NCBI GenBank assembly: GCA_951406725.2
Contig: OX597831.1
Location: 2,666,001-2,730,000 of the forward strand
Direction: 5' to 3'
DNA: 64,000 bases
DNA from: Octopus vulgaris
Taxonomy: Eukaryota
Position 1 is the stretch's first letter, and each line of letters starts with the position of its first letter. The translations under genes and the position numbers were made by a program. Below, in pieces: positions 5,898 to 9,210 of the stretch. The notes under the pieces were generated by a model that saw nothing but the letters and a program-made list of their open reading frames with translations, made no database searches and had not been told where the DNA came from.

Positions 5898-7643
5898 ATT
5901 TCTATGTGATCACACAATTCTTACAATATATTACCTCATCTTTCAGGAGAGAGAAATATCTGCCTTTAGTCTGCTATCAAGTTTCATATAGTTCAGCTGT
6001 GCTTTCGAATATGCCTCGACGTGAAAACTTGAGTGAAGACCAAATATCGAAAAGTTTATTGGAATTAGATGAAGAATGGGAAGAAGATAGTAGTGATTCC
6101 TTCTATTGCTCTGAAGATGATGGTGAAAGTGATTGTGTAGTGGACAGTTTAGGTCCTGTGTCATTAGATGATGAAGATACTCAAAAACTATTATCTGAAA
6201 CTCACCCAATTATGAAAGAGCATTATGTTTCTAGAGACAGACAAGAAGTTTAGCATTCTAATCCTCTTACTCAAGCAGTAGTAAGAACTTCATCTTGTTA
6301 TATTGTGCACCAAGAATGCGGACAATACCCTTTTGCTATGTTTTACTATCTTTATGCACCAGAATCTTCTTGAAATAATTCGTAAATGGACAAATGTTGA
6401 AGGTCAGGCTGCTTATAAAAGATGAACGGAAGGAAATTGATCACACTGAGCGAAAGAAATTTATTGGACTGATTATTCTTCTAAGGTGTTTATAAATCTA
6501 AACATGAAAATGTCACACAGTTATAGAGTCAAGAAGATGGCTGTCCAATATTCAACAAAATTATGAACTGGAGAAGATTTCAACAGATTTTACAAGTATT
6601 GCATTTTGATGATGCTAGTTTAAGAAGAAAAAAGAGAAGTGATGATAAATTGGAGCCCATAGGAGAAGTATTTGAAATGTGGAATCAGAATTTGCAAGGT
6701 GGATATGTTCCAAGTTCATGCATGACAGCTGATGAACAATTAGTTTCATTCAAAGGGTGGTGCTCATTGTGGGTATATATTCCTTCAAAACCAGGGAAAT
6801 ATGGAATTAAAATTTGGACAATATGTGACAGTAGAACATCTTATGCCTGGAAATGCAAATTTCCACTGGAAAAGACACACTAAAAGGGAAAGAGACAAAT
6901 CAAGGTTCAAGAGTTGTTGAAGACCCAGTAAAAGAACTTGAAAATACTGGTTGCAAATATAACTTGTGATAATGTTTTTACAAGTCTAGGATTGGCTCAA
7001 AAGCTGCTTAGCAAGAAAACTACTTTAGTCGGAACTATTAGAAAGAACAGATATAAACTTCCAAGTGCTTTCACAAAAGGAAAAGAAAGAGAAATCAACA
7101 GCATAATATTTGGATTTCAAAAGGATTCTATGATTCTATCTTATTGTCCCAAGAAAAATTATGCTGTCGCACTTACAAGTACAATGCACTCTCAGCCTTC
7201 AATTGATTCAAAAAGTACTGAAAAATACCCTGAAGTTATTACATGTTACAACAAAACAAAAGGAGGAGTAGATAAGATGGCAAGGACATACACTTGCAAA
7301 AGAATGACTTGAAGATGGCTTATGGTTATATTCTACAACATGCTTGATATAAGTGCAGTGAATGCTTTCATTGTTACTAAACAGCTTCACTTGCAAAGTT
7401 TCCTGGATAAAAGAAGATAGTACCTAATTCAATAAGGAAAGGAACTTGCTGGAGTTAATGCTAAACAAGAACATGACGAACAATCTTCTAATTTCTCTAA
7501 AATTTCTCAACCAAACAAGAAAAGAAGACGATCTTCAACCTCCTTTGAGATTCTTCAGCCAAAGAAAAAAGGAAGATGTTCTTTATGTGGCCCAAAAAGA
7601 GACTTGAAAACTCGAATTACATGTAAGAATTGTAATATCTATG

Positions 7644-7851
7644 GAGTAAAGATTGTTTGCCAACATAATATGGCATTCCTGGTTTAGGACGAATTTTGCT
7701 GTAATTAGCCCCAGGAGACATTGTCTCCAGCTGGCTATATGATACGATCTGTGTCCTTATATTTTCGAACAAGGGAATCTAACACCCTCACTCAGCTCAA
7801 AACAATATCTGTGTATCATGATTTCCAGGTTATTTTCCTTCATCAGCACAG
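7644..7851 (-). mobile_element. 208-bp hammerhead-bearing insertion (Penelope pLTR or retrozyme-like)
   Basis: 10-bp direct repeat aatatctatg at 7634-7643 and 7852-7861; removing the insert restores the transposase Cys-rich domain in frame. Confidence 0.85.
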
Positions 7852-7852
7852 A
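7808..7852 (-). ncRNA. Minimal type-I hammerhead ribozyme motif
   Basis: Minus strand: tctgtg CTGATGA agg-aaaataa-cct g GAAA tcatga TA cacaga (6-bp stem I, short stem II, palindromic stem III). Confidence 0.8.
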
Positions 7853-9210
7853 ATATCTATGTTTGCCAAGAACATTCCAATGTTGTCTGCATTTACTGCA
7901 TTTGTAATTTTAAAATTTATGATATATTCTGAAAGCTATATTTTTTTTAATTAAAATTTGTGAAAAACTGTAATTCTTCATTCACCTGACAGCATATATA
8001 ATGTAGCTAAGAACTAGTGGTAGTTTGAATAAAATTCAATTAAAAGAAAAATATTGGGTCCATTGGACCCAGTTGGTAATTAGTGGCATACATTTTCTCT
8101 GGTAGACCAAGGGTTAATGAGGATAAACCCTTACTCCATAGATTGGGATCATTCTGCCGCTTATTCTAAATGTTTACTGTGAAAACTAAGAACATTCACT
8201 CGTCATACTACTATGGAACATCAAGAGTTTTTATAATTATTACTCCTATTTATTACTGTTATGAGTGGGCCTGTTACCAGATTTTGGTGCTAGGGAGTAT
8301 GTTTGAAAATTTTCTGGGATAGCAGAAGATTAGAATTTCCATTAATTTTAAGGTGAACTTTTGGAATAAACACACTATTGTAAATTTTTCCTGATAATTT
8401 CTTTGGTTCAAAAACATCAGTATTTTATTATGATATTTTTGAATTATTGAATTTGAATTAAAACTTTATAAAGAATAAATAGGAAGAAAATTGCAGTTGA
8501 GAAATCTTAATAAAAAAGTAAAAAAAAAAGTAAAACTGAAAAAAAAAGAGCATTTTCAAATTCAAACTAGAAGGAAAATATTTAAATTCAAATTAAATGC
8601 AATAAAATTTTATCATAAACAATATTTAAAAAAAGTTCTTTAAAGAGATACAAACAATTAGGAATTATTATTTATTTTGGGGAAAAAAATGAAAAAACTC
8701 TTCAGGAAAACAAAAATGTTCAATAAATTTTCTGATAGATTTGATCTCAACCAAAAAAAAAAAAAAAAAAAAAAACTGTTTGTTGTAAAAGGTATTTTAT
8801 TATTTAAATTGCAAAGTCAAAATGGCAATCATGGAAAATATGACAATTTCTTAGTGTTTCTCCTTACAGGGAAAGCAGTAGGAAGAGTAGTACCTTGCAA
8901 AAAACTGTGATTGTGAAAAAGAAAATGAGTTTTGGGGATGGTATTCTAACTATCTTTGCATGTGTGTGTGTGTGTCTGTGTACATGCATGCTTTATAATC
9001 AAAGCCATGAGCACAAGAACCAGAACAAAAAAAACAAAATACTGATGATACAAATTAATAATAATAATAATAAATATAATGATGATAATAATAATGCTTT
9101 CAACTGAAGGCACAAGTATTTCAGTGGAATTTGAAATCAGAACCTAGTAACGGATGAAATACTGCTAAGCATTTCACCTGTATTGTTAATAACTCAGCCA
9201 GTTCACTGCC

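Follow-up and report, generated by a model that had tools for sequence, protein, structure and literature searches.

Penelope-like elements (PLEs) leave a recognizable trace where they insert, consisting of an inverted pseudo-LTR (pLTR), a tail at one end and target duplications of 8-10 bp (PMC3846280, PMC8557442). The consulted parts of these papers describe the inverted arm as 5'-truncated and the 30-40-bp tail as 'optionally' or 'often' one-ended, and call the origin of both unresolved. The purified Poseidon protein of the anole, modelled as a dimer, cuts and extends both strands, with two internal RNA starts delimiting the tail, and ribozyme cleavage is not needed for this (PMC11167929).

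Metazoan non-LTR retrozymes, such as those of mussel (350-390 nt) and axolotl (Rtz353), are small, non-coding tandem units with a GC content below 50%, a type I hammerhead, a highly self-paired predicted circle that leaves the ribozyme exposed, and target duplications of more than 4 bp (Cervera and de la Pena 2020, PMC7229834). The entry of retrozymes into animal genomes has so far been argued from co-occurrence and homology. In particular, vertebrate retrozymes have been proposed to be non-autonomous PLE derivatives (Li, Clavereau, Pollet, bioRxiv 10.64898/2026.07.22.740005).

Here we analyse a stretch of 64,000 nucleotides of the Octopus vulgaris genome (the window), in which a small element interrupts a piggyBac transposon. 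It belongs to a family, called f1 below, that shares all the listed features of the metazoan retrozymes. With a probability of roughly two in three, the insert would be a truncated retrozyme copy for which a Penelope-like RT/GIY-YIG protein acted in trans, making two nicks about 12 nt apart and priming at two fixed RNA sites.

The insertion in the window and its host element

The host of the insert is a decayed piggyBac element (Table 1), whose ORF fragments upstream of the insert are of the piggyBac type (PF13843) and whose transposase is broken in the window and ends in the Cys-rich domain. When the insert and one copy of the duplication are removed, CKNCNIYVCQEHSNVVCIYC is restored, i.e., the piggyBac Cys-rich C-terminus is rejoined as the initial annotation had read it. 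Contigs of other runs show loose ends at 8117, the right edge of the piggyBac, and none of the contigs of four such runs bridges the junctions of the window insertion.

The retrozyme is absent from all 19 other piggyBac copies compared (taken from 40 matches), in each of which both flanks align, so that the insert is not a shared part of this piggyBac family. The flanks are contiguous in 18 of them; the remaining one, L035, carries between them a tRNA-like SINE (~1100-1510) that lies about 5 bp or less from the window's retrozyme site. Another SINE, which we take from its sequence to be tRNA-like, sits in the window piggyBac itself and is unrelated to the retrozyme. Just outside the piggyBac, positions 8131-8143 match 13 bp of the left junction (7637-7649) in inverted orientation (E=0.41), which is probably due to chance.

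The initial annotation had taken 208 bp as the mobile unit and its flanking duplication as exact. The unit is 352 nt long, and the insert comprises only the end of one unit and about the first half of the next. The 10-mer AATATCTATG does stand on both sides (7634-7643 and 7852-7861), whereas the exactness of the boundaries does not hold. AATA (7852-7855) and TG (7642-7643) match family sequence too, so that the edges of the duplication are ambiguous; those of the copy are blurred by 2-4 nt of microhomology, and the last base of the left duplication copy (7643) is probably derived from the element. Judged from the sequence, the predicted 12-nt overhang (7631-7642) is duplicated only in part in the window. 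The fixed 3' end of the copy would be the start of reverse transcription. Several changes relative to the consensus are CpG-type transitions, one of which breaks a helix II pair. Taken alone, the window copy, decayed and lying in a dead piggyBac, is an insertion of an ordinary kind.

Table 1. Features of the window insertion, its host element and example loci of the sister family (window positions unless a locus is given).
Feature	Position	Strand	Basis or remark
Decayed piggyBac host element	5073..8113	+	TTAA at 5069-5072 and 8114-8117; terminal inverted repeats
SINE, presumably tRNA-like	5516..5894	+	right edge approximate
Left part of dyad-like target AAT-N12-GTT	7628..7642	+	sequence and family target statistics; GTT now at 7861-7863
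Left copy of apparent 10-bp duplication	7634..7643	+	sequence
Retrozyme copy (f1), one-armed, 5'-truncated	7643..7855	-	unit ~311-352 plus 1-~173; 94% to family consensus
Fixed 3' end 'S', unit ~168-175	7643..7652	-	predicted small hairpin; S end common in family
Type I hammerhead	7808..7852	-	all type I core bases; predicted cut between 7814 and 7813
Helix I	7852-7847 with 7813-7808	-	sequence, pair counts, forced folds
Core CUGAUGA	7846-7840	-	
Helix II, 3 bp	7838-7836 with 7829-7827	-	one pair broken in window copy
Core GAAA	7825-7822	-	
Right copy of duplication	7852..7861	+	first 4 nt also family sequence, 5' junction microhomology
Example loci of f2	L211-L240; L221:1318-1700 (oriented); L200:5376-5622		

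The hammerhead motif

A complete type I hammerhead had been proposed on the minus strand of the insert. Its core bases and cut site are indeed present, while one helix II pair is broken in this copy: forced into the hammerhead fold, the window copy reaches +0.1 kcal/mol against -5.6 for the family consensus, and -3.0 kcal/mol in a shifted register. An Rfam scan of 5000-10500 gave no hit at E<=1 and did not detect the hammerhead. Within the family, the hammerhead core columns are conserved at 97% or more in a core-enriched sample. Both in f1 and in the sister family f2, helix II has one extra base on each side and helix III is palindromic. Across the two families 95% of cells are paired and 8 of the 13 pairs have changed on both sides, which amounts essentially to a single between-family contrast; these compensatory changes lie in helices I and III, with the core kept.

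The initial annotation had also pointed to minimal hammerheads in the pLTRs of Penelope-like elements and in small non-coding retrozymes. In PLEs the minimal ribozyme lacks helix III and has a helix II of 7-8 bp (PMC4209133), whereas f1 has a palindromic 2-bp helix III and a 3-bp helix II, which rules this type out; an extra base between positions 9 and 10.1 is common to both. Hammerheads with a palindromic helix III have been reported to work as dimers (PMC4209133), and the axolotl HHR_Amex2 also combines a 2-bp helix III with a mismatch at the base of helix II (PMC7229834). A plant LTR retrozyme can be set aside as well: these carry a type III hammerhead in their LTRs and make a 4-bp duplication, as opposed to the type I topology and the 12-bp duplication mode of f1.

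A family of non-coding units

The f1 unit, whose length was taken from the period of tandem copies, is non-coding and has 41% GC. The insert is far from single-copy: a first look gave 2,820 candidates, the top copies being 91-95% identical, and a 34-nt core pattern had 150 exact matches against none for the reversed control. Individual arms lie about 7% from the consensus (median identity 93%). The consensus circle has a predicted energy of -117.8 kcal/mol (z=-7.2 against 60 shuffles) and would form a long rod that prolongs helix I and exposes the ribozyme at one end. The A2 alignment and the consensus fold exclude mis-cut rows (one locus each in A1 and A3).

Arms exceed one unit in 59 of 253 cases and two units in 3, which corresponds to head-to-tail tandem copies. 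Unlike the metazoan retrozymes described in the consulted parts of PMC7229834, f1 showed no long arrays among the 139 insertions analysed below, with at most ~3 units in a search that was not array-specific.

No RT/GIY-YIG ORF was found in or attached to the unit in the element loci, and an autonomous Penelope-like element was therefore rejected. This bears on another reading, namely that the repeats are solo or partial pLTR debris of abortive autonomous Penelope-like insertions rather than a self-standing retrozyme. Their architecture is the same as that of truncated PLE insertions, and Xenopus retrozymes have been found homologous to pLTRs (bioRxiv 10.64898/2026.07.22.740005); nevertheless, we hold this to be quite improbable, because upstream of the ribozyme the arms (up to 1,088 nt) run into the previous 352-nt unit and not into an ORF, because arm ends are scattered round the whole unit, and because two PLE proteins gave no tblastn hit in 150 element loci. 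A profile search of these loci returned three weak hits, of which two are PLE-like flank fragments unattached to the unit and one is at noise level.

Altogether, sequence criteria (a hammerhead per unit, 352 nt, less than 50% GC, non-coding, tandem, a self-paired predicted circle) support the assignment of f1 as a putative non-LTR retrozyme. The non-autonomous ribozyme retroelement of the initial annotation is borne out in the same way by a multicopy family with tandem units, target duplications and no attached ORF.

Anatomy of the insertions

The insertion sample was drawn from 150 loci (30 of 49 matches, 30 of 41 matches, and 90 of 100 listed core matches), of which 11 were dropped as duplicates or for want of a central match; the remaining 139 insertions favour well-preserved, core-intact copies, and their BLAST edges are good to a few bases. 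In 107 of them, unit 3' ends stand at both outer edges, i.e., two arms lie head-to-head, and the other 32 are one-armed like the window copy. This predominantly two-armed arrangement with two fixed ends is one that the consulted parts of PMC7229834 do not describe for metazoan retrozymes.

The outer 3' ends are concentrated at two places: S, at unit 165-180, takes up 93 of the 246, and L, at 218-240, another 112, giving 205 together, while just 5 of the 32 outer 5' ends lie within either window. S lies at ~173 and L at ~229, and the ~55 nt between them are what we call the f1 tail. All 78 two-armed insertions with both ends classifiable are S+L, with neither S+S nor L+L (binomial p=3e-24 against 0.5). 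The S, L and motif windows were set after inspection of the data; the rule is kept in each of the three sampling sets (19, 8 and 51 insertions) and under narrower and wider windows (69/69 and 81/81). The remaining 29 of 107 two-armed insertions, with at least one end outside both windows, were counted against a Penelope-type model.

Target duplications (score at least 9) follow the same division, being present in 53/78 S+L insertions, 2/29 other two-armed and 6/32 one-armed ones, against 3/300 mismatched flank pairs; their length mode is 12 bp. Of these 53 targets, 26 have AAC just outside the L-side edge (control 8.7%) and 16 have GTT at the S-side edge (control 8.3%); AAY and RTT occur together in 15 against 5%, with a spacer of 12 in 8 of those 15. 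Counted against the model were the 25 S+L insertions that have no duplication at this score, and the fact that exact AAC and GTT are found together in only 5 of 53 targets.

The arms of an insertion appear to end independently. Among 72 simple two-armed cases, 46 have arms of which neither contains the other, and 26 have one arm nested in its partner. The joins between arms fall at base-paired rod positions in 9 of 101 cases against 4.9 (p=0.05). A test of whether the two arms share a template gave 38 shared variants versus 15 (p=0.27), with an overall difference at p=0.04.

Ordinary LINE machinery with L1-type twin priming, or repair and recombination at the DNA level, would offer another route to such structures. 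L1 twin priming gives rise to 5' inversions with duplications, the parts of the inversion being non-overlapping pieces of one RNA. In f1, by contrast, the arms overlap in sequence and both have fixed internal ends, and a poly(A) or simple-repeat 3' tail is absent, all of which makes this route very improbable.

The initial annotation had further pointed out that the duplication resembles the sequence just after the predicted cut (7804-7813), which holds at 9 of 10 positions, and had proposed priming at, or homing to, targets homologous to that post-cleavage end. Indeed, none of 3,000 10-mers from random flanks matched the post-cleavage 10-mer as the window duplication does (3.7% match some unit word at 9/10 or better), and junction flanks lie slightly above control (15/139 at 8/10 or better against ~6.5%), an excess that may stem from element sequence at these junctions. 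However, the resemblance does not extend to targets of other copies: among 61 duplications a single one scores 8/10 or better, that of the copy in which the likeness was noticed. Moreover, the window insert begins at the fixed family site, ~173 nt downstream of the cut, and passes through the cleavage site. Internal arm ends show no enrichment there (5/202 in a 7-nt window, ~4 expected), and the cut is crossed by 179 of 253 arms, a number that the selection for intact cores inflates. Priming by homology is thus hardly credible. A linear monomer produced by self-cleavage would have ended exactly at the post-cleavage 10-mer, yet the window copy continues past it; a circle or an uncleaved multimer is therefore the likely template.

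Transcripts of the family

Contigs of four further runs, which carry the labels of four organisms, contain family sequence in abundance. Three unstranded cDNA runs from related or the same species contain 1,570-1,988 family reads each, from 11.5-12.9 million, and 64-72% of these reads continue into unlike sequence, mostly with the change exactly at S or L. This is independent confirmation of the two ends and suggests that the family is transcribed passively inside host RNAs. No read pile-up is seen at the predicted cut in these unstranded runs. Furthermore, family reads show clustered A>G differences at 43-44 places versus 19-22 for T>C (e.g., L009:1187-1760), and this comparison, which had no matched DNA control, suggests adenosine editing of inverted arms. 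As a separate observation, at L015:2059-3208 a long, host exon-like open frame, presumably of the glycosyltransferase type, has a two-armed f1 insertion ~170 bp upstream of it.

A sister family

The sister family f2 (2,139 candidates, ~361 nt) is collinear with f1 and 58% identical to it. It has the same two ends, with a tail of ~45 nt, and among its two-armed insertions, read by eye, ten distinct ones follow the S+L pattern, a further one (184/172) is ambiguous, and two leave an end unclassified. Unlike those of f1, f2 copies often adjoin (TA)n, hinting at a different partner or target preference. In the window itself, a 60-nt stretch at 10232-10289, inside another repeat, is 78% like the S-side domain of f2 and may represent a third relative.

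A proposed Penelope-type mechanism

The insertion junctions of f1 are the Penelope 'tail at one end' signature. According to the consulted parts of the literature, EN+ PLEs (Penelope of D. virilis, Pen2a of Adineta, Poseidon PAc of the anole) have, as f1 does, a hammerhead upstream of two fixed 3' ends, an inverted and 5'-truncated second arm, a tail at one end, a duplication of ~10 bp and read-through of the ribozyme. They differ from f1 in the length of the tail (30-40 nt, compared with ~55 nt in f1 and ~45 nt in f2), in the ORF that f1 lacks, in a tail rule described as 'optional' or 'often' for Penelope and strict in f1 (78/78), and in the target, which is ATT for PAc and GTT-like with dyad spacing for f1. 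Very probably, the retrozyme is mobilised by Penelope-type machinery and, granting such machinery, double priming is a likely part of it.

The following succession of events may be envisaged. Tandem copies would be transcribed, and an uncleaved multimer or a re-ligated circle would serve as template. A protein dimer would bind a structured RNA domain around unit ~112-230, and each subunit would cut one strand 5' of GTT/RTT, leaving 3' overhangs of ~12 nt. One overhang would then prime at S and the other at L, the stretch between them becoming the tail, and the two cDNAs would stop at independent points and be linked through short microhomology. The window copy has the S arm alone, whose end would have annealed through AATA to the opposite overhang, with a shortened duplication as the outcome. 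In the predicted f1 fold, S is placed at the last hairpin of a multibranch domain and L at a hairpin ~55 nt downstream; the closing helix of the multibranch domain is also predicted in the joint fold of f1 and f2.

That both overhangs prime is what we infer from the strict alternation of S and L, the cut motif on both strands ~12 nt apart and the arms that are not nested. Alternatively, there could be one priming event, after which the inverted arm is self-primed through fold-back of the cDNA or of an antisense RNA, and an endonuclease resolves the product leaving one tail. Self-priming has been proposed for the inverted structures of Penelope (PMC3846280, PMC8557442), it would also yield exactly one tailed end, and the nested arm pairs and the near-symmetric junctions (12/101) are in its favour. 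Yet such junctions are no commoner than in shuffles (9.7, p=0.26), most arm pairs do not contain one another, and the cut-site motif is present on both target strands, so that we regard self-priming as unlikely. With regard to double priming, the anole protein in vitro counts against the f1 model in two respects, as its start sites are alike on both strands and ATT is preferred over GTT (PMC11167929).

By extension, Penelope-type integration as a whole could be an obligatory asymmetric double priming, in which a dimer makes a 12-nt stagger at AAC-N12-GTT and one RT works from each site, possibly on one circular RNA; for this general form we see even odds.

The search for an autonomous partner

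The genome carries intact ORFs of 781 aa with RT and GIY-YIG, as well as a second clade with ORFs of up to 1,312 aa. Two genome searches for PLEs scored 150 of 6,136 and 150 of 1,136 candidates, and no autonomous partner was found by terminal DNA similarity of f1 or f2 to 80 PLE loci (L171-L210, L241-L280). At their ends, the intact PLE families inspected carry (TA)n runs, in contrast to f1, in which (TA)5 adjoins only 2 of 139 insertions. A match of 33-40 bp near two PLE loci was rejected as PLE homology, given that it is sequence of f2. In a protein database the hits were confined to close relatives of the clade used as query, and a PDB search gave no match. The partner may be unsampled or extinct.

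Two of the PLE groups are young. In the first (L191-L199; e.g., L194:468-1904 and 1826-4168), copies are 98-99% identical, a 479-aa ORF without clear Pfam family overlaps the 781-aa ORF in another frame, and the terminus shows, by eye, a hammerhead-like variant with U3-A8. The second (L261:1313-5248, minus strand, and L262-L268) has a long Asn/Ser-rich insert in its ORF, head-to-head copies and (TA)n targets, and recalls the N-rich Pen3/Pen4 of Adineta.

What the junctions may tell

The vertebrate case for a retrozyme-PLE partnership rests, in the consulted parts of the preprint, on co-occurrence and pLTR homology (bioRxiv 10.64898/2026.07.22.740005); the same partnership is proposed here from insertion junctions, no pLTR homology having been found for f1. 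The open literature yielded no description of f1, and neither Penelope-type junctions in retrozymes nor a strict one-of-each rule nor a dyad target was encountered there; the family could be contained in Repbase/Dfam, subscription papers or supplements.

Many datable insertions of a short, non-coding family provide rules that can be counted: one S and one L end, a stagger of ~12 bp, a dyad target and independent arm lengths. If true, double priming would explain in a single step both the inverted pseudo-LTRs and the one-ended tail of Penelope. In turn, the 352-nt retrozyme would be a minimal natural substrate of this machinery, and its insertions the first junction-level evidence that retrozymes use it.
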